Of a stretch of 64,000 bases of DNA, positions 1-64,000 are shown one piece after another. The stretch's first letter is position 1. Every line of letters begins with the position of its first letter. The stretch comes from Limisphaerales bacterium. Its GTDB lineage: Bacteria > Verrucomicrobiota > Verrucomicrobiia > Limisphaerales > AAA164-E04. The position numbers and the translations under genes were made by a program. Where the stretch lies: NCBI GenBank assembly GCA_024761205.1, contig JAMASS010000024.1, forward strand, positions 12,079 through 76,078, given 5' to 3'. The notes under the pieces were generated by a model. The model ran no database searches. It worked only from the letters and a program-made list of their open reading frames with translations, and was not told the origin of the DNA.

Positions 1-297
1 TACGATCAAAAGCTGAAGAGAACGTTCTTTCTATAATGATGTCTGAGAGAAATGATCCCAGATTCTTCGAGTCAATGAAGGAGTGGAATCGCATAAAAAA
101 CCGCTACCATCCTCCTCAGCATTAACCGCCTCATTCCCCCTGCCCAACGCCGCCGAGCAGGCGTGCCTTCTTTCAAACCAGCCCAATTCATCTTCGACAG
201 CAAACCTTTGGCAAAATCGCCGACTTGCTAGCTCCTAGCCGCCACACCGATTCCCTGCCATACTCCGAAAGAACCAGACTAGAACCCGAGCAAACCG

Positions 298-594
298 ATG
301 AACCCGAATCTAGACAACTGCCACATGTGCGACCAATCCGTCGCATACAGCGCAACGACCTGCCCGCATTGCGGAGCAGAAGGAGAACGCCATTACTTTC
401 GGCCATCCTTCAAGGAGGCTTTTGACCTTTCTTGTCCCTATTACTACGATATACCGATTGGCAAACATGCTCGCGTAGAAGCGCAGCGTTACATGGATGA
501 AAAAAACACACCCAAACCTCACGGGGTCATTTTAGGTCTTATCATCTTTATTCTTATAATCATCGGTCTCATTGACATCGTAAAGAACCTATAG
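298..594 (+). CDS. small zinc-ribbon protein with C-terminal transmembrane helix (hypothetical)
   Basis: 98-aa ORF. It has CxxC...CxxC ('CHMCDQ...CPHCG') and a hydrophobic tail 'GVILGLIIFILIIIGLIDIV'. No family recognised. Confidence 0.45.
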   Translation: MNPNLDNCHMCDQSVAYSATTCPHCGAEGERHYFRPSFKEAFDLSCPYYYDIPIGKHARVEAQRYMDEKNTPKPHGVILGLIIFILIIIGLIDIVKNL

Positions 595-708
595 TCATTC
601 CGCGCTCATCCGTGAAAAATTTCTCTTGCCCTATTTATGCTTTCTGTACCTCAAATCCTTATTCTCAACTCTTTGCATTCCCTGTTCAAATTATAATTCT
701 TCATTGAC

Positions 709-1353
709 ATGCCTCGCCCGCTCGCGGATTGCCGCCTCTATACTTTTATCGACACAGCGTATCTCGACGGACGCTCACCGGTCGGAGTCACTCGACAGCT
801 TTGCGACGGCGGCAGCGACCTGATCCAACTCAGAGCCAAGAACCTACCCAAGGCGGAAGTCCGGGCCATCGTTGAATCCATGGCACCGGTCACGGAAGAC
901 GCCGGCGTGCATCTAATCATTAACGATTATCCGGACATTGCCCAATCACTGCCCTCGCCTTTCGTTCATCTCGGACAGGAGGACTTCTTTGAACACGGCT
1001 ATTCCCAAGCATCCGACCTTTTTCCCGACTCTCCTCGTCCAATGATTGGGCTCAGTACCCATGAGCCAAGCCAATGCCAACGAGCGATCGAAGCGGGTGC
1101 GGACTATGTGGCAATCGGCCCCGTATATGCCACCGGCACAAAGCCAACTGCGAAGCCTGCCACCCTAAACTATGTCCGTTGGGCAGCGGCACACGTCAAC
1201 ATTCCCTGGTTCGCAATCGGTGGCATTAACCTCGAGACACTATCGGAAGTTCTATCTGCAGGCGCCCGGCGCATCTGCATTGTTTCCGCCATCCTTCAAC
1301 ACGAACACCCAGACAAGGCTTGTCAATCGATTCGCCAATTACTACCGTCCTGA
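709..1353 (+). CDS. thiE: thiamine-phosphate synthase
   Basis: 214 aa with typical ThiE motifs: 'IQLRAK', 'HLGQEDF', 'GLSTH', 'GADYVAIGPVYATGTK', 'FAIGGI'. TGA stop. Confidence 0.9.
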   Translation: MPRPLADCRLYTFIDTAYLDGRSPVGVTRQLCDGGSDLIQLRAKNLPKAEVRAIVESMAPVTEDAGVHLIINDYPDIAQSLPSPFVHLGQEDFFEHGYSQASDLFPDSPRPMIGLSTHEPSQCQRAIEAGADYVAIGPVYATGTKPTAKPATLNYVRWAAAHVNIPWFAIGGINLETLSEVLSAGARRICIVSAILQHEHPDKACQSIRQLLPS

Positions 1354-1407
1354 CCCCGAATCCGTTTGATTTCTAATCACTGCGAAGCAATTCGAACTAA
1401 GACACCT

Positions 1408-2310
1408 ATGAGCGTACTCGTCATCGGCACCATCGCCCTGGACTCGATCAAAACTCCCTACAGCGAAAACCCGAGACTCCTCGGAGGATCCGCCAGCCAT
1501 GCGGCCGTCGCCGCCAGTTTCTTCTCCTCGGTCAGCTTGGTAGGTGTCGTCGGCAGCGACTTTCCGGAAAATTACCTTGAGCTTTACAACAAACACAGCA
1601 TTGACATCCGAGGCTTGGAACGCAAAGAGGGCCAGACGTTCTTCTGGGCAGGCGAATACGAAGTCAATATGAACAACCGCCAGACTCTCGAAACCATCCT
1701 CGGAGTCATTGAGAACTGGTTGCCTGACATCCCCGACGAGCTCAAAGAGAAGCCCTATGTACTGCTGGCGAACTGTGAGCCCAAACTCCAACGTCACATC
1801 CTGCAACAGGTCAGCAACAGCAAGTCACTCGTGGTCGCCGACACCATGGACCTGTGGCTCAACATCGCTCGAGACGAGCTGCTCGCACTTCTCAAAGAGA
1901 TCGATTGCCTGGTCCTCAACGATTCCGAAGCCCGCCAACTCACCAAGGAAAACAACGCGGTAGTGGCAGCAAAACATATCCACGAGCTGGGACCGAAGTA
2001 TGTCATCGTCAAAAAAGGCGAACATGGTGCGATTCTCTCCGCCCCGAAGGGACTGTTCATCGCTCCGGCATTCCCCCTTTCCAAACTCACAGATCCAACC
2101 GGTGCCGGCGATTCCTTTGTCGGCGGGTTGATCGGTTATCTTGCGGCCGCCGGAGGCGACATCGAAGACCACTTTCGCAAAGCCGTCATTCACGGCAGTG
2201 TGACAGCTTCCTTCTGCTGCGAAGGCTTTGGACTCAGCGCCACCACCGACACCACCCGAGAAGCCATTGACGCCCGAGTGGCGAAACTAGAAACATTGGT
2301 TAAATTCTGA
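1408..2310 (+). CDS. PfkB/ribokinase-family carbohydrate kinase
   Basis: N-terminus 'MSVLVIGTIALD' and the C-terminal PfkB signature 'DPTGAGDSFVGG'. The ORF opens at a TTG at 1366; the ATG at 1408 is the preferred start. Confidence 0.85.
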   Translation: MSVLVIGTIALDSIKTPYSENPRLLGGSASHAAVAASFFSSVSLVGVVGSDFPENYLELYNKHSIDIRGLERKEGQTFFWAGEYEVNMNNRQTLETILGVIENWLPDIPDELKEKPYVLLANCEPKLQRHILQQVSNSKSLVVADTMDLWLNIARDELLALLKEIDCLVLNDSEARQLTKENNAVVAAKHIHELGPKYVIVKKGEHGAILSAPKGLFIAPAFPLSKLTDPTGAGDSFVGGLIGYLAAAGGDIEDHFRKAVIHGSVTASFCCEGFGLSATTDTTREAIDARVAKLETLVKF

Positions 2311-2392
2311 TCGGCGTTTTTATGTTTAGATACTCAAACAAGCATTGCCAAATCCGAAGCCGATGCCCTAAAATCTCCATTTCCGTTCCATT

Positions 2393-2466
2393 GCGGGTGT
2401 AGTTCAATGGTAGAACGGCAGCTTCCCAAGCTGCATACGAGGGTTCGATTCCCTTCACCCGCTCCA
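2393..2466 (+). tRNA. tRNA-Gly (anticodon CCC)
   Basis: Hand-folded 74-nt cloverleaf. Acceptor GCGGGTG/CACCCGC, D arm GTTC..GAAC, anticodon stem GCAGC/GCTGC with loop TTCCCAA, T arm GAGGG-TTCGATT-CCCTT, encoded CCA. Confidence 0.9.
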
Positions 2467-2624
2467 CTTTTTGCCAGCGGCGAAGAGGTGGGCATCTGAC
2501 TCTCTTCAAGCAGGATAGGAAACAAGGCGTTCAGTTCATCAGGCGCGGAATGAGCCTTGAGTTCATCGATGCCCAACGTGTCAAAGTGGATACCGACACG
2601 AAATCCCCCCACCTTTTTGCCAGC
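2464..2624 (+). repeat. short direct repeat of the tRNA 3' end (2464-2478 and 2609-2624)
   Basis: 'ccactttttgccagc' overlaps the tRNA CCA end and recurs as 'ccacctttttgccagc' about 145 bp downstream. This looks att-like, but it is only 15-16 bp. Confidence 0.35.
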
Positions 2625-2719
2625 TGACCACACTAAGATGGAAACCTGCGACTAGGATAGCGACAGCGTCTGGGATTCAGTCTACGGCTGCAATCGCGTG
2701 AACGCTGCCGGAGCACTTC

Positions 2720-3226
2720 GTGGCGACGCTCTATCTGTTGAAAAACGTTGGGACCAATGAGGAACCAGCATTCGAGAAACCGAAGAACATCCGATCTCAA
2801 GGCGAGATTCTTAATCTAGGTCTCCACCCCTGGGCTCCGGCCGTGGCCGACATTGATGCAGACGGCCAAGAGGAGTTCATCATTGGCAATGAAGACGGAC
2901 GGCTCACAATCTATCAGCGGGAAGATCTCGACATCGCTATCCAAAGACCAGCGAGCGCACCGATCAAGAGGGAACGACTAACAACCGAAGCAGAAAGATC
3001 GGGCAAGCAGGAGTGGCGTCCTATGTTAAAATACCTTGCCGACATGCCATCGGCGGGGGCTCACCCTGCACGTCACCTTTTCCTATTCCCGGGAGAAGAT
3101 CGGCCTAAGATACCACGCCCTCCCCCCTTCGGTCACTGGGATATCACTTATTGCATCATCGATGTCCTCCCCACGCTACGGAATCATGCCAAGCATCAGC
3201 CCCCCAATAACCTCGCTAATCAGTAG
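2720..3226 (+). pseudogene. FG-GAP/VCBS-repeat protein fragment
   Basis: 'LYLLKNVGTNEEPAFEKP...WAPAVADIDADGQEEFIIGNEDGRLTIYQ' is a single FG-GAP-type repeat. There is no plausible N-terminus, and the remainder of the ORF is low complexity. Confidence 0.4.
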
Positions 3227-3229
3227 CCG

Positions 3230-3700
3230 GACGGTCCGATCCCATTTATCTCGATCGAGCGCCCGCAAGGACAATCACCAAAGCGCCGCTCGTTCGATTC
3301 AGTCGCCCATCCTCCGACCTGGGTGGATACAACCTACTATGTCTTTTCGATGCTCGACCTCGCCTCAGAGTGGGCTACACGCCTCAATCAAGATGCGGAA
3401 CCGACACATTACCGAGCGAAAGCGGAACAACTTCAAGCGATTCATCCAGGATCGCCATTTTGATAACCGGTCAAGGTGCTTCTATGATCTTGTCGGCATC
3501 TGGCATCACTCGGAACTCGGCTGGGTGCACTGTGAGCTGTCCACAACAACGGTATCGATCACTCAAAGCCCTTTATTCATACGAAAAAGACGGTGCTCGA
3601 CGACTCCCTCATCTCTCGCCGATCTATTCTGCCACATTCACGCGTTCGGCAACAACTTCACCCATTGCAACCAAGTGAGTGAGGAAGGAATTGTGTCGCA
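3230..3700 (+). pseudogene. glycoside-hydrolase-like remnant ((alpha/alpha)6 type, GH63/trehalase-like)
   Basis: 'WVDTTYYVFSMLDLASEWATRLNQDAEPTHYRAKAEQLQAI' sits in one frame and '..DRHFDNRSRCFYDL' in another. This resembles the '...A..L...I...WDe..g.fyD' region of such hydrolases. Frameshifted. Confidence 0.3.
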
Positions 3701-3959
3701 TTTCCAGGAATATCGCGCGGCGATTAAGACGGACGTACCGACCCAACATTCGGAGCACCGGGGATTCCGCCGTTAGCTTCAAACTAAAGCCCTCCGCAGG
3801 ATGGCCTTGGTTTGGTCCAGAGCGGCGGCTTCGGTGATATTCATTGCGAGCAAAGCCTTTCCCATGCTGAGGCGGACGGCGATGACTATCATCTCACCCA
3901 GCTTGCAAGCCGGGCGTCACTTTATCGAGATACGGGAAGCCCAAAAACAGCCTGGTGAA

Positions 3960-4830
3960 AGCCCCCTTGATGGGCATCATGCTAGGATTCCATCTCACCA
4001 CCGGCCCTTGAGTCACTTGTGAGGGCGTGACCAAATCCATCGGGCACTCCGCATCACAGAGCGCGCGATGCCGGAGATCGTCAAGGACTGCTGATCCTCC
4101 TTTACACCGCTCGATGCAGCAACCCATGCTTTCGTGAGAGCGACAACCTCCCGAGGAATAGGGAGAGGTGTTCAATGGTGCCGCTCCATCCGTGCTGGCG
4201 GATGATGTTGATGACGCCGACGGGATGGACGAAACGAAGGATCCGTTGGCGCCGGCGCTCGGCGTCGTCCCAGCCAGTCCATTAAGATCGACGACTCGAG
4301 GCCTCGCGACGCTCTGCCTATGGTCGAAGGAGGGGTGGCCCAGCCGGCGGATTACCGCCCGCCGGCGGCAATTGGACTGTCGTGAGCGAACTAGTTGCCC
4401 CGGCCCCCGGCCAATGCGGTCCAAAACCGCGCCGGCAAGAGGACGCTGGAGGGGAGATCAAACGCCGCTTGCCGCTCGCTCGTTCGCCAGCGGATCTCGT
4501 CAAGGGTGATGGATGCCAGGTTGGGCAATCTTCGCTCGCTCTTGAAATGAGACAAGCGGCTCGCCAACCCTCCCCTAGACTTGCCGATGGGGACGACCCT
4601 CGCTTGGGCGAGCCGCCAAGCTGAGCCCACCAATCGGTGTTGGCTCAATCATGTTAAAGTAGCTGATGCGAATCCCGTACTACCGCTCCCATAAGACATC
4701 ACCTTTCGGATCCAACTTAACCACTCATGGATGCAGTTACCGGCTCGCAATAAAGCCACCATCCAGTTCAAGCAACGGTGGCTCCGAATCCGGTAGATTG
4801 GCAAAGTTCTGAATGCCTTCGCAGTCAAGG
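3960..4830 (-). mobile_element. IS5-family (IS427/IS1031-like) transposase remnant, multiply frameshifted
   Basis: Minus-strand pieces lie in different frames: 'LPDSEPPLLEL' and 'LLRAGNCIHEWL' (DUF4096-like N-terminus), 'PIGKSRGGLASR' (the GRSRGGxxTK motif) and 'CIERCKGG..LRHRALCDAE' (IERxFxxLKxxRRIATRYDK-like). Element boundaries are approximate. Confidence 0.45.
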
Positions 4831-5400
4831 CTGATCGTTGTCCTGCCAACAGGTAGATTGACGTATTGTTGCCGCCATTTGTTCGCCCCACCCCACATCC
4901 ACTTTGACACACAAGACATCAAGGCAACCATCAAATATAAAGATTCTTCCCAACCCGGAAAAATCATCGCTCGACCCCACCAAGAAATAAAATACTCTCC
5001 GTTGGCCAGTCGGGTCGTATCCCAAAAGCCTTCCCGGTTCTCATAGTCGTAAAGGCGTTCCCATTCAATCGCTCCCCCCTCACTGATATTCACCGTCCAA
5101 ATGCCCACACTCACACCGACGAGCGATTGCTTGGTGCCGCTAGTCTCCGAGGTGGAAGCCCCACCCAATAACAATAGGAATCGGCCACGATGATTTGCAG
5201 CCGATTATCATCCTCGCCGCCGCAAATCGCTTCCCAAAGCTTGATCACCCCCGACATCCGTTCAGACCATCCAATAATCGAAGTCATCGTAGTCAACCGA
5301 CGGTGCCATCAGTGAAAATTCAAACTGTCCAATTTATAAATTCGCGCAATCGAGTCACGCACATCGTTCTTCTTTCCGTTCATGGGTATTAGAGCCTGTG
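4800..5400 (-). pseudogene. unknown-function gene remnant, apparently truncated by the IS5 remnant
   Basis: Protein-like translation 'GIWTVNISEGGAIEWERLYDYENREGFWDTTRLANGEYFISWWG...'. It continues upstream only after frame changes (ORFs 5111..5296 and 5309..5545). Confidence 0.3.
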
Positions 5401-5477
5401 CAAAATCAGGCGAAGCCATTCCCTTCCGGGTTAGCCCATCCATATCCCAGAGCCTACAAGGCAGGGCGCTCGTCATC

Positions 5478-5905
5478 CTACAACCGGATGTACCACCCAT
5501 ACCGCCTCCACCCGCAGAAACTGCTCTTCCAAATGGCGATAGCAATTCTTCCCGTAGGATCGAATCGCTGAAAGGTAACGCTCAACAATCCACTGCATCC
5601 CTGGTCATCCCGGCAACTCAAGCGCCTGATGCACGCGCTCCAGCTCAGCCGCCGGTTCCTTTTCAAGCGCTTCAAAGCGCACTTCACAAAATTGATTTGG
5701 CGGCAACACAGCCGTGTTACGATACAATCGATCCAATATTCGCGGATACATCTCCTTGCGCCCGACATCGAGCCGCTCAACCTTTTGCATCGCGAGATCA
5801 GGCATCATCTTCGAAAAATAGTGCACCGAAGAGGCGAATACATCATAAGGATTCCGATGAATGTGAATAAACTTGGCGTCCGGTCAGATTTTTCAAATGC
5901 AATGA
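5478..5905 (-). pseudogene. sulfotransferase remnant (N-terminal PAPS-binding part missing, frameshifted)
   Basis: Verified translation: 'DAKFIHIHRNPYDVFASSVHYFSKMMP...NQFCEVRFEALEKEPAAELERVHQALELPG'. This is a typical sulfotransferase C-terminal half. No 5' P-loop region is present. Confidence 0.55.
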
Positions 5906-5924
5906 CAAGTTAGGGGCATGGAGA

Positions 5925-6147
5925 GCCTTCGGCGGGGAGGGAAAGTTGCGTCTGTCTGGAACCGCAGCCAGCGGGCGCGTCCGGTAGCTCGAAGCAGCGC
6001 CCCTCCAATATGTCCGGCACGCTCAGGAGTTGCAGGCGGGGGCAGCGTTTGCCATTGGCTTTCATCTCTCCGACCGTCGCCATCTCGCGGCTGAAGGTGG
6101 TTGCCTGCTGCAGCTTCAGTTTGTGCATGAGGATCAGGCCGACCATG
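5925..6147 (-). repeat. copy 1 of a ~225-bp dispersed repeat (partner at 32181..32414)
   Basis: By eye, roughly four-fifths of positions are identical to the partner. The translation '..LILMHKLKLQQATTFSREMATVGEMKANGKRCPRLQLLSVPDILEGRCFELP' resembles the Mrr-like C-terminal tail of some DNA methyltransferases ('..RLQILTIEELLEG...P'). Confidence 0.4.
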
Positions 6148-6149: not shown

Positions 6150-7125
6150 GGCGTAGTAGAGCTGATTGATCCGGCTCACGCGAGCGCCCTCCGCATCAAG
6201 CAAGCAAAGGTGATCCCCTTTCGATGGTTGTATCTCTAAGACCGCCTCAGCGATGAAAAGCAGCATCCGACGTTTGCTGTAGTGGTGGTGCGAGCCGTGC
6301 CCGTTTTATCAAGGGCTTAGCCTTCAATCGTGTTGACGAGCCCTTCCGCATAAGCGAGGGCATGATTGATAACGGCGCGCCGAAAACCAGAGCGGGGCGA
6401 TAGGCTCGGTTATTCATTGGTAATCGGAAGGGTGCCCTACTTTTCAACAGCCCCTTGCCGGACAAGGACTCGGCAACGCGGGGCGACAACCCCTTCCGCC
6501 CCGTTCTACAGCAGCAATGACCGGAGTTTTACGGATGCCTCGGCCTCGTCTCGGAGGGGGGGAAGGGGTATTAGTAGCAGAACTCTTGGGGCTGCTCCCT
6601 TTGCGCGGTTTGCCGCCCACGTAAGTTTCGTCGGTCTCGGCGATGCCTTGCAAGACGGGCGCTGCTTCCCCCGACCTGGAAGCCCGAATGCGCCGTTGCA
6701 AGCGCAGGGCGGCAGGCTGCGTCAGCCCGAGGTCGCGGGCCAATTGGTGGCTAGACAAGCTCTTCTTGGCGTTGATCGGGGTGCCCATAGCCATGAACCA
6801 TTTCTGGAGCGGGACCCTGGTTTTCTTGAAAAGGGTTCCCGCCAAGACGTTAAAACCGGACTTGCAGACATGGCAGGGCCAGCGTCCAATACGGAGATTG
6901 TCGGCTTTTCTGGCCACCTTGCCACTAGCGCAATGGGGACAGCGGGGGTTCATCACCCCAGCGCACCCGCTCCCAATGCGCAAGGCAGGCTTCCTGATCC
7001 GGAAAGCGTTGGAATATGGCCAACAGATTCACAAGCGCGCCCTCATCCGCGCGCCCGAGGTGAAGCATCGCCCACTGCCAGCCATGCTTCTGACTTATCA
7101 TTGCGCAGACTTTTTGAGACGCCAC
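6150..7125 (-). mobile_element. IS1595-family (ISXO2-like) transposase remnant, frameshifted with an internal stop
   Basis: 'FPDQEACLAHWERVRWGDEP', zinc ribbon 'CPHCASGK..CHVCKSGF', 'ETDETYVGGKPRKG...KTPVIAAVERGG', then 'FRRAVINHALAYAEGLVNTIEG*' in another frame. Confidence 0.6.
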
Positions 7126-7289
7126 TAGCGTGCCGGCAATTTTGCGCCTTGAGATCGAACGCCGAATACTGGTTCAGGATTCTCTAGGAATGGTCGTGTC
7201 AACGCATTGAGCGAGCCCTGAGCTTGAGGGATTCCATTTTTGAAGGGCGCAGTCGGAGACACGCTAAAGCGTGAGATCCAAGGGGGCTT

Positions 7290-8040
7290 AGCTAGTGACA
7301 TTGATGGTTGGGTGCGTTAGCGAATGTGGCACGATTACTGACAATAGCGACAAACTTGCCCCCCTTTGGACCGTGATCGGCACAGGGATGGTCTTGGTTT
7401 GACTGGAGTTGTTCGGTTCCGGGGACCGCTGATTGTGTGGGGATGAGGATCGCCTTGAGTTTTCAGGATTTTCGGTCGGTAAGCAAGGGACTGCGTCCAG
7501 TATCTCTGGGGGGGGAGTGCAGTTTTTGATCATGCCACTTTTGGGGTGGGCGATCGGTAGAGGACTGAATTTTTCTCCTGACTTCGCTGTTGGTCTGATT
7601 TTGGTTTCCTGTTATCCGGGGGGAACCTCTTTAAACGGCATGACCTGTCTGGCTCACGCGAATCTGCCACTTTCGGTTTTGATGATGATGTGATTGACCT
7701 TTGCTGTGGTCATGATGACGCCGCTGCTGACAAAGGCCTTGGCAGATGAGATTTTGAAGGGCGGGTGCTGCTGCTGTTGTTGGTGGTGACCCTAATGCAT
7801 GGGTTAGTCTTTGTGCTGGGATATTTTTCGGCGAGGCTTTTCCGCTATGAGGAAGCGATCCGATGAACGGTTTTTATTGAAGTCGACATGCAGAACTCGG
7901 GTTTGGGTTCAGTGCTTGTGACCAGACACTTCAATCTTTCGACTGTGACGCTCTGTGCCATCTCGTCCGTGATGCATTGCATTCTTAGCCGGATATTGAC
8001 GGTGACAATCGACGCATGGCCAGGAGCGGTTCGTCCCAGA
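7290..8040 (+). pseudogene. bile acid:Na+ symporter (BASS) family transporter remnant
   Basis: 'QFLIMPLLGWAIGRGLNFSPDFAVGLILVSCYPGGTSLNGMTCLAHANLPLSV' and 'VDMQNSGLGSVLVTRHF' lie in different frames. The middle of the protein is missing or garbled. Confidence 0.55.
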
Positions 8041-8342
8041 GACAGGCGATGTTTTTGTCTCATCCAGTTCGGAGTAAACCACGGCACCGGCAGTTCCAAA
8101 ACGTGGTATGGACCATACTATAAGTCATATTACGAGATCGATTCCAGGCTCCTTAGAAAGATGGTACTGATGTGGCTACATGGATCGCAAGAACTGCGCA
8201 CAGAGCGGATCGGAACTCGTGATTGATGGCGCGTCTGAAGCCTCGGTAGACTTTGTAGTTCTTGAGGGGGTGCGGCTGAAAAGAGTTCCAACGCACCATT
8301 GACTCGCGAGTCCTCCCACAAGGCGAGTGGTCTTGGCAGCGA

Positions 8343-9180
8343 TCATGAGCTTGAAGATGGTTTTGACGAGCAAGGCAATCGTGCTGTAGCGCAAGATTGC
8401 CTTCCGGCGATTGATGCCAGTTTTGGGAGTACTATCCATAGGGGGCGGGCAGGACAGTCAGCCCGTTGAGCAATCCAGGGTTCCATTCTGGCCATCCATT
8501 CCGGCGGGTTGCGTCGAAGTTGCTGATAGCAGATATCTGAGTTGATTTGTGATCGCGTTGGTTCGGCGGTTTTTGGTCGGCAGAATTGGCATTTTTCGAT
8601 GCAAGTTTGAGGCAACCTGTGAAATGCTAGGCCAAAGAAGCCTAGGCTCAGAACGACAGGTGACTGAATCGATGCGACGAATAAGGCGTTCGAGTTGATG
8701 AGAGGGAAATCCGAAGCTAGGAGAAATCCCTGGATCATTCCCGGCATGAGGTAAAGAGAAGAGATTGGGAATAATGGAGACAATGAGCGAGGAGGAGGTT
8801 CAGGGAAAGTGATTCGCTTGTCAGAGTGCCGATGATGAAAGCGGTCGTTGCAGCGGCCAGCACGGGGAATGCGCCGGTGAGGATTTGGAAGCCGCATTGG
8901 TATGGGAGAAGATCTTTCCCAGGAGAATCTTCAGAGGGCCAACATCGGTCAAGAGGAGCAGTTCCGAGCATGCGGGTGGATTTTTTTTCGCGAAGCAAGA
9001 GATTGGCCAACAATGAGCCCGAAAGGCAACAAAATACCATGGTGACACTGCTGACAGTCAAGAAAATCCAGCGTCCGGTGGTGGATGCCGTCGAGAAAGC
9101 CGTCGCCAAAGAAAAGGCCAGAGCCGCAAACAGCCGGGAGGCTACTGCGGCCACGATCCGAATCCCATGCGGTCATCATC
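8343..9180 (-). pseudogene. membrane-protein remnant (possibly MotA/TolQ/ExbB-like)
   Basis: Overlapping minus-strand ORFs carry hydrophobic segments ('ILTGAFPVLAAATTAFIIGTL'). No continuous frame exists and the family call is weak. Confidence 0.2.
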
Positions 9181-13003: not shown

Positions 13004-13037
13004 TGATAGGATCCAGCCCTGAGGTGAGGGACGGACG

Positions 13038-49517: not shown

Positions 49518-49537
49518 TCTGACCAGGAGGAGGACTG

Positions 49538-54606: not shown

Positions 54607-55140
54607 CTATCTTTTGCTGATTCCGAGATCTTTCAGTTTTCCGTAGATATCGGCGCCGTGTGAGCCTGCTTTGACTGACTTGTCAACGTGGAGAATTTTT
54701 CCTTTTTTGCTGATGTAGTAAGTCCAGCGAAAGGGGAAGGGATGACTATCGTTGACGACTCCAAAGGCCTTCGCGGTTTCCTTACCGGGATCACTTAGGA
54801 TAGGGTAGTCCAACTCCAGGGATTCAGCGAATCGACGGTTGGTGCTGGCATCATCACAGCTAGCCGTAAAGTACGCGACATCGAACTCACGAAGCTTCTT
54901 GCCACTCTCACGGAGTGACTTGCATTCGCGCGTTCAACCTCCGGTAAAGGCCTTCGGATACCAGGCGATGACGATGGCTTGCTTTCCAGCAAAATCAGAT
55001 AGTTTGTAGGTTTTGCCGTCGCTTCCAGGTAGAGAAAAGTCTGGGACTTTATCCCCCGCCTTGAGCTCGGCATGCGTTGGGGATGCGAATCCGGCGAGCC
55101 CTATTAAAAGGGCCGCCATCCGAATGATTGTCTTCTTCAT
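54607..55140 (-). CDS. candidate selenocysteine-containing periplasmic peroxiredoxin (AhpC/TSA-Bcp-like), read through UGA at 54934-54936
   Basis: ORFs 54934..55140 and 54607..54813 share one frame. I translated the gap codon by codon and the TGA is the only interruption. The product is '[99 protein letters not shown]...'. The U falls on the Cys of the universal PxxxTxxC motif. Confidence 0.65.
54901..54919 (-). promoter_or_regulatory. SECIS-like hairpin for the peroxiredoxin
   Basis: On the mRNA, GUCACUC-CGUGA-GAGUGGC (7 bp including one G-U, with GU in the loop) begins 14 nt after the UGA. Confidence 0.5.
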
Positions 55141-55404
55141 GGTTCTCTTCAGTTCATGAGTTCGAGAAATCGAACCGACTATGGGAAAGTAAGTTTTATC
55201 AGTGGAATGTCCAAGGGGAATCTTGAAGACTCAATGGTCTTTGGTAAGGAAGATAGCGGACCAAGAGTTAGTCGAAACGATTCGTTGAGGTCGCCTTGAT
55301 TGCTCAGTGGTTTCATCGACTGTCACGATTCAGTCCGAGGAGGTAGTTTCATCACGCACTCTCCAGACAGTTTCCTAACGGTGTTCGACCGGTTTCGTTG
55401 GGAT

Positions 55405-56690
55405 TCAAACTAGTTGCGGAAAGTTGAGCGGCAAGTTTGCAAGGAGATTACTTGACCGTTCTGACTTCATAGAAGCGGTGTCGGGACCTGTGGATAGGGC
55501 GGTGAGCTCGATGGTGGTGCCAGTGCCGGTCACTTGGTTCACCGCCCGGAGCTCAGTCACCTGCTGTGACGTCGGGTATAGAGTTGATAGGTCGCTCCAT
55601 TGGTGTGAGAGAAATTTGGAGAATGGAAAAGGGACCGCCGGAGGGGGCGGTTGGATTTGTTCCGGCTGCTTCTGCTTTTGCATTAGTCATTCCGTCCTCA
55701 TCAGGGTCGGCATCAGGAGCTGCGTCAGGTCCGGTAAAGGGATCGAAATGTTCACAGTGAAAGCTATCGGAGAGGCTATCGTAGTTAATATCCAGAGCTC
55801 TCTGGGTCTGACTTTGAAGAAACCGTTGGCAGAGGCGATGTCTTCGCCCCGCCTAACGATGAATGATCGCAGATCTGGGGTGGCATTTTCAGCAATGGAA
55901 GCCGTTTGAAAGATGTACAGATACCCGTAAAAACTGCGTTGAAACTTGAGCAGGATTCAGGGTAAAGCATCTCCAGTGACGAGGTGCTTTACGCCGGAAG
56001 TGGGAAGGCTTGATCTGAAAAACGTCAAGGGCGACATCTTGAGTACCTTGCGTGATGCCCCGTGGATTGGAGCTAGTTCCAAGGAATCCGGGTTTGAGAT
56101 CTGCCGGGCGAATTTGTGCGATACGAAACGGAGGTAGCGTCAGAATGACTGCGGAATTGACGGTCGCCGTGCCGTCAAGGGCAAGTTCGACGGAGGCGCT
56201 CATCGTGGGTCTAAAGTTGACCTCGGTTTGTTCGAAACGTGCAAAGAGGATGCCGCGATCCTTCACCCAGAAGGAAGAGGCCGCTGCTGGATCGAGGGGT
56301 GCGACTCAAACATAGTAATTTCCCGCGGGAGTTCCTTGAATCTCGTAGAAGCCTTGAGGATGGGTGTCGGTTTCTTCAAGGGAAACCGGTTCTGGCAATG
56401 AGTTCAGCAGACTCGTTTCGAGAAAGACTGCCCACCCGGGATGCCTTCGCCATTGGCGGTGACGGAGACCTCCACACGGGTGAGGTTGCTCGCGAACTGG
56501 GAATCGCCATAGTTTGATTGCTAATTTCGTCCAGCGGTAGCCCGGTTTCCAACTCGGGCTCGAAGCCTTCTCGGGCGAATATAATCGCGCGCGCCTATCG
56601 GGGAATGCTGCAGGCCAATCGCGTGTCCGAACAATGGAGGGCGGAGGTAATTTGGTTTTTAATGCAATCATAGGCATGGCCATGTGAGGG
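55405..56690 (-). pseudogene. large secreted protein remnant (CarboxypepD_reg-like and Asp-rich 'DxDxDG..N..E..GTNP' segments)
   Basis: 'THPQGFYEIQGTPAGNYYV*VAPLD' carries an in-frame TGA. 'PDADPDEDGMTNAKAEAAGTNP' and other pieces lie in different frames. Confidence 0.3.
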
Positions 56691-57900
56691 CTGTTACGGA
56701 TCATTGTGTTTGCGGTCCATGATTCGTGACATGGTGCGTACCGAGGCCGGGTGGTTGCGTGGCTAGATTGTCGGTTTCCGCAGGATCGGAGACCAAATTG
56801 TAGAGTTCGATTTCCGCTTGAAAATCAGTGCTGAAGTTTCGTTTGACGGCCTTCTAGTTTTCTTGCGGTACGAAGATCTTGCCGCCGCATTCGTAGAATT
56901 CCCAATAGCGATAAGGATGGGTGATTTGTGCAGTCGTATTACCGATCGGTGCTAGCGAAATGCCATCAATGGATGCGGAGGGCGAGTTCCGGCCAATTCC
57001 ACAAAGGTGGGGAAGATGTCCTGAAATCCGGAGATGAGGTCACTGTTTTTTCTCGCCGGGAAATGTTTGGGCCAGCGGACGATGAAGGGGCCGCGGATAC
57101 CTCTCTCGTAGATATCCCGCTTCATGCCCTTGAGGGGCCGTTGTCGTTGCTGAAGAAAATCTCGGTTTTCTCTTCGAGATACAATTGCTTGAGCAAGGAC
57201 AGGATGGTGCCGAGGTGGTCATCGATGATTCGGATCATTTGGGCGAATCTTTTTCTTGGATGAGCTAGTCTTGGTTTTCAAATTTGCCAAGGTTCGGGAC
57301 GTGCATTCCGTTGCGGGCGATACGAGTCTCTCGGCCTCCTTGGTTGTTCGCATGCGGGATGTTCAGGGTGTAGAACAGGAAGAAGGGCTCTTCTCAGTTG
57401 GTTCGAATGAAGTCTAGTGCCTGATTAAAAATCAGTTGTGGCGTGTAATCGCCTCCGATCTCCGAGATTTCTGCATCTTCTTAAGCTGAGTTTTCTTTGG
57501 CCTTCCATTTGGGATGTATAATCGATTTCTTAGTGGCTCTTTCTTGCCGTTCCCAACGAGAAACTCCGGATAAAATTGTGAGCTTGAAACAGGTTGATGT
57601 AGCCGCAAAACGCGTCAAGGCCGGGCCGGGAATGCAAGTCGAGCCATGCTAGGTGCCTGATCGTGTTGAGCACGGAGGTCAATGTAGCCGTAGTTGAGCG
57701 TTCAGACAAACGTCTCGGGCATTTTCTGCCCGAGCGGGAGCACACTAGTCTGTAACGGGTGTCGATCATCTTCCTTCTGTAGGAACGAGTGCTGGATGCT
57801 GCTTGTCGAATGGGTTCTTTACAATCGCAGGGATCACGAATCTTTTTGGGTTGTTCCAGTGCTCCAATTCTCTTTTTGGGGCGAGAATTGAGTCGCGAAA
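56690..57900 (-). pseudogene. arylsulfatase remnant
   Basis: Verified pieces: '[15 protein letters not shown]', '[19 protein letters not shown]', 'FFLFYTLNIPHA' and 'ELYNLVSDPAETDNLA'. They are spread over all three frames with several stops. Confidence 0.6.
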
Positions 57901-57905: not shown

Positions 57906-58420
57906 TTAGCTTCTGCGTTGGTCAAGGGTGTGTTCGAGTTTGCTGTGAAGCTCCTCAAAGGAACCGTTACTGAAGATGCAGACGGCGTTTTCAGGACATC
58001 CCTCCTTTGCTAGGAACGTGCGGATTAGGTCCCCGGTATCGAGACATTCGCAGTTCTTTCCTTGGAGGCGTATGTCGATCGCGAGGAATGATCCACTCGC
58101 CATTTGGTGAAGCGGGCCCCTGCAGCCGAAATTATGCGGCGTGCCGCCGATGAGGAAACTTGGGTTGAGTCCAACGGATTCGAAGACCCATGCCATCAGG
58201 GAAGTTGTGGTGCTCTTGCCGTGTGTGCGCTAACACCGAGGTCGGGGCCATGAGCCAGATTTTTTCGGCGTGGGGAGAGCGTATCGCGATGTCTTGCGTC
58301 TCGAGGAAGGTAGCCATTGGTGAATAGGCTCCCTGATCAAAGCCGGTTACCTTGCAGCTCTTTGATTTGAGAGCTGCGGTGCAGGACACCATTGCAGTGT
58401 CACAGATGCCGCTAAAGTGG
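57906..58420 (-). pseudogene. Mpl/Mur-ligase (murein peptide ligase-like) remnant with a large internal deletion
   Basis: 'KVTGFDQGAYSPMATFLETQDIAI', then the verified P-loop 'THGKSTTTSLMAWVFESVGLNPSFLIGG'. This is joined almost directly to a C-terminal-like 'AVCIFSNGSFEELHSKLEHTL'. Confidence 0.5.
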
Positions 58421-58501
58421 ATGGATTTTAGTATTCTCGATCACGAGGTCGTGGCGGACGGAGGCTTACAGGCTAGGCAGCACGATTTTGCGCTTGCGGG
58501 T

Positions 58502-59953
58502 TTAGTTGGAGAGTTTCTTCTCCAGAATTTCACCGACTAGATTGGGGTTGGCTTTCCCTTGGCTGAGCTTCATGACTTGGCCTTTGAGGAAGTTGAGCGC
58601 CGCCTTCTTGCCCGCACGGAAATCGCCGGCAGACTTCGGGTTTTCGGCGATTGCTTGATCGCAGAACGAATCGATCGCGCCTGTGTCGCTCACCTGAGCG
58701 AGATCTTTTTCGTCGACGGTTGCTCCCGGCGACTTTCCCGACTCGAACATTTCGCTAAAGACTTCCTGGGCGATCTTGGAGCTGATTTTCCCGCTCTCGA
58801 CGATTCTGATGAGTTCGTTGATGCCCTCGGGCTCAAATTTCAGGTCCTCGATGTCGGTGTTGCTTTCAGCCAGCTTGGCACGGAGATTGTTGATGACCCA
58901 ATTGGCAACGGCTTTCGGTGACTTGGAGGCCTTGGCGATCGGCTCGAAATAGTCGCCAAGAGCGACGTCGTTGACGAACACCTCAGCATCTCCGGGGGGA
59001 AGGCTGTAATCGGAAATGAAACGACGTTTTCTGGCGAGTGGAAGTTCCATGACTTGTTCAGCGACCGAGGCCATCCATTCGTCGTTGGGCTCGAAAGGCA
59101 TCAGGTCGGGGTCGGGAAAGTAACGATAGTCGTGAGCGTCTTCCTTGGTGCGCATGGTCTCGGTGATGCCTCCGATATCGTCCCATCGGCGGGTTTCCTG
59201 AGTGAGGGATTCGCCATTGGTCAGAGTGCGAATTTGACGATCGACTTCGTAGTTGATCGCTCGTCGGACCCCACTGAAGGTGTTCATGTTTTTGATCTCG
59301 ATCTTGGCGCCGAGTTCGGTCTGTCCTTTGGGGCGGACACTGACATTGACATCGCATCGGACCATTCCTTTTTCCATATCACAGTCGCTGACTTTGCCGT
59401 AGGTCAAGATGTTGACGAGGGCATTGAGGTAGGCATACGCCATGTCGGCACTGCGAATGTCCGGTTCGGAAACGATCTCCAGAAGCGGCACGCCGGCGCG
59501 GTTGTAGTCGACACCGCTATGTCGATCAAAGTGGAAACTTTTGCCCACGTCTTCCTCAAGATGGGCACGGGTGATTCGGACCTTAGCAATATCTTCTTCA
59601 AACTCGAATTCAACATAGCCCTCTTCCGTGGAGGGGTGCGCTAGTTGGGTGATTTGGTAGTTCTTGGGGACGTCGGGATAGAAATAGTTTTTGCGATCGA
59701 AGCGGGCATGGCGAGCAACATGACAATTGAGCAGCATGCCGGTGAGGGCGGTCAGGCGGAGGGCTTCCTCGTTTGCAACGGGCAGCACCCCGGGCAGGCC
59801 AAGGCAGACGGGACACACGTTTGTATTGGGGGGCGCTCCGTACTCGTTGGCGCAGCCACACCACATTTTGGACAGCGTCTTCAGTTGAACGTGGGTTTCT
59901 AGGCCGATGACCGCTTCGTAATCCATTAAAGAGTGGGAAGGAGTTTGCCTCAA
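58502..59953 (-). CDS. gatB: Asp/Glu-tRNA(Asn/Gln) amidotransferase subunit B
   Basis: 'YEAVIGLETHVQLKT..KMWCGC', 'VCPVCLGLPGVLPV' and a GatB/YqeY C-terminal domain. 483 aa. Confidence 0.95.
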   Translation of the reverse strand: MRQTPSHSLMDYEAVIGLETHVQLKTLSKMWCGCANEYGAPPNTNVCPVCLGLPGVLPVANEEALRLTALTGMLLNCHVARHARFDRKNYFYPDVPKNYQITQLAHPSTEEGYVEFEFEEDIAKVRITRAHLEEDVGKSFHFDRHSGVDYNRAGVPLLEIVSEPDIRSADMAYAYLNALVNILTYGKVSDCDMEKGMVRCDVNVSVRPKGQTELGAKIEIKNMNTFSGVRRAINYEVDRQIRTLTNGESLTQETRRWDDIGGITETMRTKEDAHDYRYFPDPDLMPFEPNDEWMASVAEQVMELPLARKRRFISDYSLPPGDAEVFVNDVALGDYFEPIAKASKSPKAVANWVINNLRAKLAESNTDIEDLKFEPEGINELIRIVESGKISSKIAQEVFSEMFESGKSPGATVDEKDLAQVSDTGAIDSFCDQAIAENPKSAGDFRAGKKAALNFLKGQVMKLSQGKANPNLVGEILEKKLSN

Positions 59954-60699
59954 GGTGGCTCAGACACGCAAATAGGAAAGGTTTGCAGTTGGGGATGCCA
60001 CTGAATACGGCCGAGCTTGCTACCGATTAATTGAGATACATCGGCGTTGAGGAGGGATGGTAATTGAAAAGCGGTGCCAACAAGACCGGAACCATGCTTT
60101 CCTATGGCAGCAATAGCTTGAAAGTGTAGAAAGGATCTTAGTCCCTTTTTCTTGGGGCGCAGCAGGCTGCCGCAACCCAGGATGATCTTCGGGTGGGAGT
60201 GTGCTGTCTTTTTCATTCACGCCGCATTTGAGGTGGATACGTTGTCTGCTTGTAATTTTTTTGAACAGTTTATGTTCCAATGTCTGAGTGCGGGGTGTCT
60301 ATGTTTGAGGGATTGGCATTCGAATGTCTGAATCTGTCTTATGGTTTCGCAAGCCTACAGAGAAGAGGGAACGGATGATGTCTTCCTTAAGTGAAACCGC
60401 CGGAATGTTACTCCGTAGGCCCGCTTGGGCTTTCAGTATTGGGCTCGTATGGTAGAGCGTTTGCCTCTCTTTTTGTTTCGAAATTTCCTAGACATAGCTT
60501 TACACCCCAACCGCACTGAAATCGACTGGAGCACCATTCCCTGATTCCGCATTTTTCGAGTGTTCCGTAGTTCCCAAGGGTTGGTCCCATTCGTTCGTCC
60601 GGGTTCGTCTAGCAAATCCGCCTATGATCGGTCGCCTCTGCTTAACAGGCCGGAAGATTTTAACGATTTCTAGCCGGTAATTTCGTTGAGAAGTAGTTT

Positions 60700-62428
60700 G
60701 GACTCATTGCCATGTACACAACCAGACAAGGAAATCGCCTCTGGAATCAAGCAGCCGCCTAATGCGTTAATTCCACCGTGCTTGGAGACCGTCACCGGAT
60801 AATTCATCGGGTGACCGTGCTGCAAAGTCTTGGATTTGAGATAACTGTCCCAATTCTACTCTTTCGCAAACTGGACTACTAGAGTCTTGGTTTTGTCAGA
60901 TTGCAGATCCTTTCAAGCCTCCCCATAAACCGGCTGTCGAGGATGCGATTCCAGGTGCTTGAGCCATAAATCGTTCTGGAAATTCACCACCGCACCTGGA
61001 CCTTCGCCGTGCAATCTCCCAGAGTGAGCTCGAACCATTTCGACTGATAGGCACTAAGACAGATATCGGTATCCCGTAAACCGCTCATACTGCGCTCATT
61101 CAAGTCCACCGAACCGATTAAAGGAAACGCTCAGCCTCAGTGACCAGCTTAAGGCAGAGCCATTACAAATTTTGGGTTCACCTTTCCGCTGTTGCGGCAT
61201 TCCCCATCCATAAAGCGGTGAACCTAACAACCAGAAATGGAATGCTCGGGGCTGTCCCATCGACCAGGCGCCAAATCCAGCCTGCCAACAAGGGCAATGG
61301 GAGAGACTCGGTCACCATTCACTCCGCCATCACAAATAACTGTCTCCTGATGATAGCTGAAGCACCTAATCACATTCACCATTCCCCTCAACTAGGATTC
61401 AACCACCCTCTGCGCTCCCCACGGCCGCATTGGCTGCGATTGCTCTGAAGTTCACACTGTTTAGTGATTGCCCGACGGATCCGCGCTGACGACTTTGACC
61501 TTTGAGCTTCCAAAGGCCTCTAGCGTATCGTCGTCAACGTTTCAAATCCTTGGCCCATTATATTGGTGCCATCCCAGACCAGCACCCGGACAACAACATT
61601 TTCCTCCGCCCTGTTGATCAGAAGTCTACGCAATAACATTCACGCATAACCGTCGTCCCCTCGAACAAGATCGACCCCTGGCCACAGGGATCACCCCATG
61701 ATATAGACGAAACGCCGTGCATTCTTGATCGCCTCGCCAATATCTTCAAAACATGTGCTGCCATCAAGAACCCCATGAGCATCCCTGTACAATTTCACAA
61801 AATTTTTCCCGCTCGCCAGCTTCGCTGCGTCGCCTAGCCCGGATGAAGATCCCCGTAGGGTAGCAATAACGCGGCATACGGCTTTGACCGAAACAGATTG
61901 ACTCCCGCAACCGACGGCTCCCACAAGAGGAGGGAAGCAAGCTCCAACATGCCCACTTCACCGAGGAAAATTTCCCCAGGAACTCGCAAGAGAACGGCCC
62001 GGTAAACGTATCTCTCCTTCCGCCCAAGCGCGAATTGCCCCCCCAGATTCTTGGCACGATCCCTCCCCGCTTAGCCTAAATTCAGCGACCACCATCAGAC
62101 GCTTCACCAAATTCCCCTTCCCTCCCTTGTACACGGGAATCCACGGCGATCGTTTCGTAATTAAACTCCCTTCCTTGCGTGGAAAGATCACTAACTTGCC
62201 GTTCTCCAACAGAACCTTCACATCGATATCCCCCCAGCGAATCACCATAGGACTTCACCATACTCTGTTTGTCGGTGCCCGAATCCACTCCCTGAATGCG
62301 CAATCATCCCTTTAAGGGAAACTTCATTCCCTTAGGCGGCGGCACCAAATAGGGTTCGTAAACGGGTCGGTTCTTTCCGTTCACCTTCTTCATTCGGGTT
62401 CGAATTTCTAGCGCAAACTTCTTACTCA
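60700..62428 (-). pseudogene. phospholipase D (plant/eukaryote-like two-HKD type) remnant
   Basis: 'NFVKLYRDAHGVLDGSTCFEDIGEAIKNARRFVYIMGW', and the verified 'FSYHQETVICDGGVNGDRVSPIALVGRLDLAPGR' (HKD degraded to H-Q-E). The second motif region reads 'IGSVDLNERSMSGLRDTDI'. Many stops and frameshifts are present. Confidence 0.45.
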
Positions 62429-62478
62429 TGTTTCACCTCACTCTTATCTTCCCGCCATTCATTGCTTCGCCATTGGAA

Positions 62479-62844
62479 TCAAACCTCGTGACCCACTTCG
62501 ACATCACCATCCGCCAGAGGTTCGAAAGCACTCAGCACAAGAGCGGACTCCCTCAAGGAAAATTCCAGCGGAGGAAACGTCCACCTTCCCCGATGGCCTC
62601 TTGTCCAATGCGGCCCCCAGTCCCGCCTCTCATCAAGCACCGCCTCAGTGACCACTTCGACCAACGAGGAAAAGCGCCGTTGCAAGGCTCGTTGCACCTC
62701 CGATTCCACCCCGAGATTCGCGTTTGACTGTTCGTTTATGATTCCTTTCAATTTTAGGAGATTTCCCGAGCCCTGCGACCACCACCGCCCGCGACAGAAC
62801 ATCCGGCGCCTCACTCCGAGAATTTTGCGCTGCACCTGTTTCAT
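62479..62844 (-). mobile_element. IS66-family accessory TnpB (orf2)-like remnant with an internal deletion
   Basis: '..VQRALQRRFSSLVEVV..' and '..WTRGHRGRWTFPP..LRESALVLSAFEPL' parallel 'DMRKGFDGL..LV' and 'KRLEKGRFSWP..L...EL..LL.GID'. No adjacent IS66 transposase gene is present. Confidence 0.3.
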
Positions 62845-64000
62845 CGTTCCACAACCTGCTGAAGCCTCGAAAACGAAACGTCATCCGGTGAACCAATCAG
62901 AGACCGCAAACGGGACTCTTGCCAAAAACAGCGCTAGTCCATCTATGACTGCGGCCCCGAGAAAGCCAACCCATCAGATATTCATCTCTACTTACTTCGA
63001 TGCCGGAGACTCCCTGCCTCGAAAGCCTTCCTACCTTTCATGGCAATGGAGTCAGGAATATCACCTATCAACACCCAACAAGCGAAGCTCAATGAAAACA
63101 AATCCGGTCCTCCCCGCAGCCACCTAGCAACTCGTGGCTCGGTGCGATCGTCACGGGGAAAACTGAAGACAATTTCGGAATCCTGAACCAGACACTCTGC
63201 TGATCCCGATTCCGCGTATTCCGCAGTCTTGCCTCCCCTCTCCTAGTCCTTTCATGCCTTGGTGTGGGGCCCCTCCTTACCACAAAAAATCATGGATCAA
63301 CAGGATGAAAAAGAATCCTGCACATCATGTTCATCCATGTCAAAAATGACCTCTGATAGATCGACTTTATGAAACGTAACCCATGCTCACCCCTCCTCGC
63401 CAAGTGATGCCACCTCGTGTTCGGTCTCTTCCTGAGCCCGTGGATTCTCATGTACGCCTGAGCACGATCACCTTTAACCATTCAGACTAGTCCGACAAAG
63501 GAAACGATCCCTACAATCCCTTGGCCCTTCCTGGACCAAGGTAAATTCCTGACCCTACACCCTACCCAACCCCACTGAAGATCGAATTCCAAAGTCCTTT
63601 GCCACCAAACCACTCAACATTGCCGGAACTGAAACCCATGCCTAAGGCACCTATCGCGCCAGATCGAATCGTATCGGAGTGTACTTTCTCATCTTTTTGG
63701 GAAACAAAGCGCCTAACGTACGATCTTGCGATTCAACGCGTGTCACTCTATCTCCGTCAACCTCACCTTCATAGCATTCCGATAGGTTCCACTCCCGAGC
63801 TAGTTGCTAACACGGCAGCATTCTGAACACCGCTTGAGCCATCTTGGTCGCCCTTGCCGTCACCGGTTCATCCTTTGAGTGATGCTCAGGGACCTTCATT
63901 TGGTGGCAGCAACCCAACATCCGGCTACTCCGAGCCGATGCCCTTACCATTAGCGCGGTATCGTTCGTTGCATTCAGTGATCCTGCTAGGAACCAACCGA

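Follow-up and report, generated by a model that had tools for sequence, protein, structure and literature searches.

The 64,000-nucleotide stretch of DNA analysed here (the window: contig JAMASS010000024.1 of assembly GCA_024761205.1, positions 12,079-76,078 of the forward strand) is strewn with the remains of protein-coding genes, and we read it, with a probability of about 0.9, as part of the chromosome of 'Candidatus Thermopylae lasonolidus', a sponge-associated verrucomicrobium of the Pedosphaera/Limisphaerales lineage, under reductive genome evolution. Intact genes, comprising 29 coding sequences (CDS) and a tRNA-Gly, make up 33,204 nt or 51.9% of the window, whereas called genes crowd the corresponding syntenic regions in relatives. 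Another 12.9 kb (20.2%) consists of 22 remnants, about 16 of them firm and six weak, and the last 17.9 kb (27.9%) is without an assigned homologue. The window combines a low density of intact genes, lesion-bearing pseudogenes with intact orthologues elsewhere, lesions that appear genuine, and a deletional bias, as in the early stage of genome reduction. An earlier note on this DNA had put the intact part at some 30 CDS and 33 kb, which agrees with our count. It had also taken half of the sequence to be gene remnants, at least 25 of them. Half of the window is indeed not intact gene, but only the 20% is demonstrably remnant, the unassigned 28% having a remnant-like codon signal and no detectable homologue, and the number of supported remnants is 22.

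Exact copies of the proteins encoded in the window occur only on the NCBI metagenome-assembled genome (MAG) GCA_024761245.1 (contig JAMASR010000078.1) and in the Logan assemblies of runs SRR18966767 and SRR18966768. These runs are metagenomes of the sponge Forcepia sp., from which the lasonolide-producing symbiont 'Candidatus Thermopylae lasonolidus' was binned, with a genome of ~5 Mb, a GC content of 53.8% and Pedosphaera parvula as its closest cultured relative (Uppal et al., mBio 2022; PMC9600693). The nearest relatives of the window are likewise Limisphaerales/Pedosphaera-type Verrucomicrobiota, at 70-86% amino-acid identity in GatB and in the glucose-dehydrogenase-like, NuoE/F-like and SMP-30-like proteins. 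Those used for comparison were ERZ18545485 ptg000019l (a 9.77-Mb chromosome with loci L083, L088 and L091), OZ243981 (3.8 Mb) and three gatB loci (L001-L003, the last being OZ245740.1).

Synteny with these relatives is a far more sensitive test for remnants than Pfam. Three Pfam scans of 28 kb of gap DNA, translated in six frames and condensed to stretches of 35 aa or more without a stop, gave only 9 matches, so Pfam alone would badly under-call remnants. In the synteny-based search, the flanks of orthologues were fetched from relatives and their proteins aligned to the window with tblastn. Ten remnants aligned to intact syntenic orthologues together contain no fewer than 30 in-frame stops and 11 frame changes, besides large internal deletions, with 20-72% of each orthologue still alignable and 25-79% identity per fragment, compared to 47-86% for intact neighbours. 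Conserved tryptophan codons have changed from TGG to TGA at six positions (7400, 9178, 22798, 32620, 32857, and 55555) and from TGG to TAG at two (56856 and 57267). Lesions occur at about 6 per kb in the 6.6 kb of aligned remnants and not at all in 33 kb of intact CDS, and a pooled uniform rate gives P ~1e-15 for 33 kb without a lesion. The protein-coding remnants, with the intact partner of one of them, are as follows.

2702-3223 (+), FG-GAP repeat protein fragment, weak (Pfam FG-GAP_3, E 1.8e-4, below the gathering score).
5608-5883 (-), sulfotransferase remnant with the C-terminal 93 residues left (Pfam Sulfotransfer_3, E 1.1e-15, profile 121-213 of 216).
7334-7998 (+), pseudogene of a transporter of the bile-acid:Na+ symporter family (BASS/SBF), with 4 stops, at least one frameshift and a ~70-aa internal deletion (tblastn with syntenic L083 7239-8186; the orthologue is TIGR00841); four orthologues have Trp where the window has TGA at 7400.
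8268-9220 (-), pseudogene of a conserved 534-aa protein in 2 pieces and 2 frames, with 3 stops (tblastn chain, 25-32% identity; TGA at 9178 against Trp).
15096-16001 (-), pseudogene of a 437-aa protein in 3 pieces, with at least 2 frame changes, 5 stops and 65% of the orthologue left (tblastn with L083 15387-16700).
22574-23375 (-), pseudogene of a 541-aa PQQ/BamB-like propeller in 3 frames, with 4 stops and the C-terminal half gone (tblastn with L089 17596-19221; TGA at 22798 against Trp).
24493-24809 (+), Rv0495c-like protein remnant in 2 frames, with 3 stops (tblastn with L088 genes).
24802-25044 (+), 3-keto-disaccharide hydrolase remnant, 30% left (tblastn with L088 genes).
31596-31859 (-), DUF1553 (PSD1) remnant covering 43 of 244 profile positions (Pfam PF07587, E 8.8e-17).
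32459-32976 (+), remnant of an MscK/MscS-type mechanosensitive channel (orthologue ~1150 aa), with ~20% left, 2 TGG-to-TGA stops and 1 frameshift (tblastn with L091; Pfam MscS_TM).
33485-34341 (+), frameshifted prepilin-type N-methyl/DUF1559-like secreted protein (Pfam N_methyl, E 1.7e-5; tblastn to L089 and L005 open reading frames (ORFs), two frames).
39919-40935 (+), intact type II DNA methyltransferase, now orphan (PADLOC MTase_II, E 3.9e-125, full profile; Pfam N6_N4_Mtase).
40941-42028 (+), cognate type II restriction endonuclease in 4 overlapping stop-free stretches (PADLOC REase_II PDLC03455, profile 5-123, 183-229, 226-307 and 307-369).
55604-56437 (-), pseudogene of a 633-aa secreted M10-type metalloprotease, with 45% left and 3 stops (tblastn with L001 14270-16168).
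56725-57543 (-), sulfatase pseudogene, with 60% left and 6 in-frame stops including both TGG-to-TAG changes (tblastn with L001 12903-14351, whose product matches Pfam Sulfatase at E 1e-55).
57915-58431 (-), remnant of mpl (murein peptide ligase), with 32% left (aa 31-97, 142-175 and 434-490) and a ~260-aa internal deletion (tblastn with L001 11358-12842).

Profile searches added weak matches to zeta-toxin/AAA, DUF4365 and DUF433. The restriction endonuclease lies directly downstream of the intact methyltransferase and lacks ~60 profile positions; its profile is spread over four separate stop-free stretches, which implies frame changes between them, and 39919-42028 reads as a degraded type II restriction-modification system that has left an orphan methylase. 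Next to intact gatB, the destroyed gene is neither gatA nor an essential Mur ligase: the orthologue is mpl (TIGR01081, 432 bits, above the cut-off), a gene of peptidoglycan recycling. The functions lost are mostly environmental or accessory: transport, the use of sulfated polymers, secreted proteins, peptidoglycan recycling, restriction, mobile elements, and possibly toxin-antitoxin systems. The classes of gene named in the earlier note can be recognised among them, namely enzymes (sulfatase, sulfotransferase, mpl, and 3-keto-disaccharide hydrolase), transporters (BASS/SBF and MscK), secreted proteins (M10 protease, PQQ propeller, DUF1559, and DUF1553) and defence genes (the type II restriction endonuclease and possible toxin or antitoxin pieces), as can the multiple lesions per remnant and the TGG-to-TGA changes at conserved Trp that it described. 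DNA has also been lost. Of six decayed intervals, four have only 0.39-0.80 times the length seen in relatives, the other two being longer because their content differs. The shortest, at 0.39 times, is the one around 24493-25044, where an AraC regulator that adjoins these genes in a relative has been deleted.

Gene callers do not see this decay for what it is. Within 6647-31115, the CDS called in the deposited and Logan assemblies take up 79% of the DNA, compared to 64% for orthologue-supported intact CDS, and the called CDS beyond that 64% are pseudogene pieces and unsupported small ORFs. Pieces annotated there as hypothetical CDS include 7888-8226, 8343-8897, 15078-15257, 15708-15923, and 22640-22762.

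The unassigned DNA takes in ordinary spacers and a few small ORFs that are possibly real (for example, 29858-31213), and homologues of the ORF at 34676-35347 occur in other Limisphaerales. Most of this DNA is plausibly older gene debris, as its weak codon-usage signal suggests: 33% of unassigned 300-nt windows lie above the 95th percentile of shuffles for host codon usage, compared to 41% for remnants and 89% for intact genes, and for each of 27 long ORFs a codon-usage model chooses the frame that is annotated. It could instead be that this 28% never coded for protein and consists of intergenic DNA that has expanded, of mobile or foreign DNA in decay, or of RNA or regulatory elements. Such an origin would suit the failure of unassigned DNA to match anything in Pfam, NCBIfam, PADLOC, Rfam or the flanks of syntenic relatives (an Rfam scan of the window found the tRNA only) and the lack of a syntenic counterpart for 60-64 kb and 3.2-5.6 kb. 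We nevertheless consider it unlikely, given that a third of its 300-nt windows stand out from shuffled controls in host codon usage, about the same share as in verified remnants, that GC content there equals that of the rest of the window (0.523-0.524 in decayed DNA versus 0.532 in intact CDS), and that the same places in free-living relatives hold short intergenic spacers. One region of this kind is at the right end of the window, where a search of 60-64 kb for the two histidine kinases that border gatB in relatives found no trace:

59954-64000 (no strand), 4 kb without an intact gene or synteny with relatives, of reversed GC-skew polarity (skew -0.10 to -0.28).
61523-61957 (-), phospholipase-D-like fragment, weak, the sole match in that region (Pfam PLD_C, E 0.0024).

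Mobile elements and probable rearrangements have also marked the window, and the features concerned are these.

6447-7028 (-), dead IS1595-family transposase, N-terminal half (NCBIfam NF033547, E 5.8e-20, profile 1-109 of 215); the NCBI MAG contig ends here.
31109-31282 (+), second dead IS1595 transposase fragment, C-terminal part (NF033547, E 1e-7, profile 139-191 of 215; Pfam DDE_Tnp_IS1595, E 9.5e-5).
53535-54044 (-), IS200-like Y1 transposase fragment (Pfam Y1_Tnp, E 1.2e-4, profile 12-66 of 121).
5888-6147 and 32144-32414 (no strand), two copies of a ~270-nt direct repeat (repeat search and blastn, 79-84% identity).

No intact insertion sequence (IS) was seen in the window. The five dead IS copies of the earlier note amount at most to two IS1595 fragments and one IS200-like Y1 fragment, together with the two copies of the ~270-nt repeat. 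This repeat is the single pair found when the window was compared with itself (tblastx and blastn), so the five are not copies of one element; the repeat search found no inverted repeats of 60 nt or more in the window. The repeat has no match in Rfam, Pfam or NCBIfam, and both copies adjoin dead IS1595 fragments at points where synteny blocks end; possibly it is one end of a mobile element. In the window, three blocks meet that a relative has far apart or in another arrangement: 7.3-29.8 kb corresponds to 4.89-4.93 Mb of ptg000019l, 32.4-47.3 kb to 6.54-6.56 Mb of the same chromosome, and 47.5-60 kb to the gatB block of relatives. The junctions hold the dead IS1595 copies and the ~270-nt repeat, and IS-mediated rearrangement can reasonably be supposed to lie behind the breaks. 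GC skew is negative at 1-6000 and 60000-64000 and positive between, and its flips at ~6 kb and ~60 kb coincide with loss of synteny, suggesting an inversion or other rearrangement.

An alternative is that decay is mostly local, a junkyard that has accumulated where IS elements inserted and the chromosome was rearranged. With 52% intact, the window falls below the published 72-79% for the genome; it brings together at least three synteny blocks that a relative keeps well apart (4.9 Mb and 6.55 Mb of ptg000019l), dead IS1595 copies and the repeat mark the junctions, and GC skew flips at ~6 kb and ~60 kb, all as a local process would have it. However, remnants are spread over the whole 64 kb and also occur within well-conserved synteny blocks (for example, at 15-16, 22-25, and 55-58 kb), pseudogenes make up 16% genome-wide (PMC9600693), and differences of method explain some of the gap to the published figure, as the difference between called and intact CDS in 6647-31115 illustrates. 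We regard a mostly local origin as improbable and prefer genome-wide reduction.

The lesions themselves appear to be genuine and not artefacts of assembly. The MAG contig JAMASR010000078.1 matches 6647-31115 of the window without an indel and with 4 substitutions only, all at 6781-7020 inside the IS1595 fragment. These substitutions sit at the very end of that contig, as would be expected if IS1595 is multi-copy and breaks assemblies. Logan contigs are 100% identical to the window over 7050-15423 (SRR18966767) and 33529-49720 (SRR18966768). The support for lesions was compared at the level of assemblies, the underlying libraries being Illumina MiSeq and NovaSeq short reads, and the three other assemblies show zero indels over 40.7 kb spanning 14 remnants. 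Errors of sequencing or assembly, such as homopolymer indels, that mimic frameshifts and stops in genes which are in fact intact are a generic concern for MAGs, and the frameshift sites here are located to intervals and not to single bases. No evidence for such errors was found, and we hold them to be a very improbable explanation against indel-free agreement of short-read assemblies across 14 remnants, 33 kb of adjoining lesion-free CDS, and internal deletions that range from 70 to over 250 aa together with lowered identity, which errors cannot produce. The claim of the earlier note that these are true pseudogenes and not sequencing error stands, with lesion regions free of indels across the other assemblies and lesions concentrated in the remnants.

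Two in-frame TGA codons in the window are of another kind, and lie in the following genes.

25363-28068 (-), FdhA, the longest intact gene, 901 codons, with a single in-frame TGA at codon 360 (76-83% identity to orthologues).
54610-55203 (-), secreted, signal-peptide-bearing AhpC/TSA peroxiredoxin-like (Prx-like) selenoprotein (64-83% identity to L001-L003; Pfam AhpC-TSA on both halves of the orthologue).

The TGA of FdhA falls in the catalytic motif (NCSRA-U-HAPTV), and gene callers split the fdhA orthologues of relatives at the same codon, which together indicate a selenocysteine codon and not a lesion. In the Prx-like gene the context is AFTGG-U-TREC, and the TGA position is Cys in one homologue. 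Both codons are predicted to specify selenocysteine and are shared with relatives, and the selenocysteine trait appears to be maintained in this decaying genome. With the FdhA codon understood in this way, the statement that intact neighbours up to 901 codons long are free of lesions also holds.

The genetic code is otherwise standard, with 27 intact genes ending in TAG (11), TGA (9), and TAA (7). An alternative code was considered and rejected: dropping TGA as a stop lengthens ORFs equally in all six frames, and 9 of the 27 intact genes end in TGA. The idea that in-frame TGA reflects a different code or recoding, to Trp or selenocysteine, and that the remnants are translated after all, has in its favour the six TGA codons that align to conserved Trp and the real use of TGA as selenocysteine in FdhA and the Prx-like gene, but it is scarcely credible when a third of the intact genes stop at TGA, the same remnants also hold TAA and TAG stops, frame changes and large deletions, and the two selenocysteine sites, unlike the Trp sites, are at a catalytic Cys/Sec position and shared with relatives.

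The pattern could have arisen in a few steps. First, after confinement to a host, selection would have been relaxed on many genes, including those for transporters, sulfatase, sulfotransferase, secreted proteases, propellers, DUF1553 and DUF1559 proteins specific to the Planctomycetes-Verrucomicrobia-Chlamydiae group, mpl, the restriction enzyme, possible toxin-antitoxin pieces, and IS elements. Second, these genes would have gathered nonsense mutations, frameshifts and deletions. Third, the dead DNA would be purged slowly, so that intervals shrink. Fourth, genes that the lineage still needs would keep their length and change at an ordinary pace. The present analysis shows the lesions and their recurrence across assemblies, the intact orthologues and the shrinkage, while the genome-wide extent of decay and the association with a sponge come from the literature; relaxed selection as the cause of decay and a role of IS elements in the rearrangements are what we infer. 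The host-restricted lineage under relaxed selection that the earlier note proposed fits the Forcepia origin of the runs, and the objection that the window might be an isolated island is answered by the published 16% of pseudogenes (PMC9600693).

Several points weigh against this reading or narrow it. Relative-rate tests of three intact proteins show no significant acceleration (chi2 mostly <3.8), and there is no AT shift in decayed compared to intact DNA, so the fast protein evolution and AT richness of long-term reduced symbionts are both missing. The absence of rate acceleration and of an AT shift fits a recent transition and not an old, strongly bottlenecked symbiont; with the classical signatures of long-term small population size absent, a recent transition is the only form of the reading that fits. 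With 52% of its length intact, the window has plainly decayed beyond the published mean of the genome, and local factors such as IS insertions or breakpoints may add to the general process. For the 28% of the window in which no homologue was detected, an origin in former genes is drawn from a weak codon bias. Finally, the equation of GCA_024761245.1 with the named bin is drawn from the run accessions.

The intact genes that could be compared align over their full length to orthologues of relatives, at 47-86% identity and without a stop or frameshift. Besides the methyltransferase and the two selenoprotein genes, the intact genes of the window include the following.

709-1353 (+), thiE (Pfam TMP-TENI, E 1.7e-47).
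1366-2310 (+), PfkB-family kinase (Pfam PfkB, E 3e-32).
2393-2466, tRNA-Gly(CCC) (ARAGORN and Rfam).
9430-14540, block of a glucose 1-dehydrogenase-like protein (+), HAMP histidine kinase (-), response regulator (-) and DegP/HtrA protease (-) (full-length tblastn to L083, 61-79%; Pfam domains).
16067-21628, block of a PQQ_2 propeller (+), Wzc-like tyrosine kinase (-), Wza-like exporter (-) and 458-aa outer-membrane protein (-) (full-length tblastn, 47-72%).
28091-29770 (-), NuoE/F-like subunit of NAD-linked formate dehydrogenase (76-83% identity to orthologues, a range shared with FdhA).
35600-38638 (+), HAD hydrolase, 383-aa conserved protein and PfkB kinase (full length, 62-80% identity to L091).
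43529-53194, block of SMP-30/gluconolactonase, TatD, exonuclease III, M24 peptidase (-), BioB, AstE-like protein, DsbH-like thioredoxin protein and two-domain PPK2 (full-length tblastn, 67-86%; AstE-like 51%).
54032-54541 (+), MOSC-domain protein (64-83% identity to L001-L003, a range shared with the Prx-like selenoprotein).
58502-59953 (-), gatB (full length, 85% identity to L001).

The functions kept thus include cofactor synthesis (thiE and bioB), gatB, a selenocysteine-dependent formate dehydrogenase, DegP, exopolysaccharide export, PPK2, and DNA repair nucleases. The AstE/AspA-like ORF (48699-49517, +) is open, but its 51% identity to the orthologue falls short of the 67-86% of its neighbours; its codon-usage score is among the weakest, and one relative lacks the gene at this place. 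Decay of this ORF may just have begun.

Gene decay in this organism was correctly read from the sequence and is already published. In 'Ca. Thermopylae lasonolidus', pseudogenes amount to 16.3-16.6% of ORFs, compared to 0.5% in P. parvula, coding density is 79%, or 72% without pseudogenes, and there are 6-15 transposase genes; Uppal et al. conclude that the genome is in early reduction after a recent event such as probable host restriction, the symbiosis being inferred (PMC9600693). Our conclusion for the same organism is the same, but theirs comes from a length-ratio criterion on Prokka ORFs and ours from inspection of orthologues and synteny over 64 kb. What is added here is that the window is more decayed than the genome average, that callers count pseudogene pieces as CDS, and a description of lesion types, interval shrinkage, genes with selenocysteine TGA codons, and synteny breaks at dead IS1595 copies. 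The extent of loss may also have been understated. Complete chromosomes of the closest relatives are very large (10.5 Mb in OZ245740.1 and 9.77 Mb in ERZ18545485 ptg000019l), although another relative has 3.8 Mb, and against chromosomes of 9.77-10.5 Mb the ~5 Mb of the symbiont may mean a bigger loss than comparison with P. parvula (7.4 Mb) suggests.

Similar states are known elsewhere in bacteria. The genomes of Mycobacterium leprae and Sodalis glossinidius also consist of intact coding sequence for about a half; among the intact genes lie scattered pseudogenes marked by frameshifts, stops and deletions, and dead DNA has not yet been purged. For such genomes, IS expansion (in relatives of Sodalis) or strong rate effects are documented. 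These bacteria belong to unrelated phyla, and the window differs in that its IS elements are few and dead and three of its proteins show no rate acceleration. Closer to hand, 'Ca. Didemnitutus mandela' and 'Ca. Synoicihabitans palmerolidicus' have been described with eroded, pseudogene-bearing genomes. Both are defensive symbionts among the host-associated Verrucomicrobia, with repeated trans-acyltransferase polyketide synthase clusters, and are listed as symbionts of the same kind (PMC9600693), but they are Opitutales from ascidian hosts, unlike the Pedosphaera lineage, and the comparison made here is with their descriptions. The remark in the earlier note that such decay is unusual for the Planctomycetes-Verrucomicrobia-Chlamydiae group is accordingly true in comparison to free-living relatives but not to these other verrucomicrobial symbionts.

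A genome in reductive evolution could here be recognised from its raw sequence, although with the organism and its early reduction published it brings little new biology. For annotation, many 'hypothetical proteins' of this MAG are likely to be pieces of dead genes, and the in-frame TGA codons of FdhA and the Prx-like gene should not be called lesions. For cultivation or heterologous expression of the lasonolide producer, lists of what has been lost (transporters, sulfatases, mpl, and the restriction enzyme) and what has been retained (selenocysteine-dependent formate dehydrogenase, biotin synthase, and exopolysaccharide export) could be helpful. More tentatively, and with rather less than even confidence, we suggest that the symbiont is further decayed than published, with ~50-65% functional coding sequence instead of 72-79% if the window is representative, that decay is organised around IS1595 rearrangements or inversions, and that the selenoproteins FdhA and Prx-like are selectively retained. 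If so, the published figure would be inflated by pseudogene fragments and spurious ORFs counted as hypothetical proteins, and the retention of FdhA and the Prx-like protein would hint that formate and peroxide metabolism matter inside the sponge.

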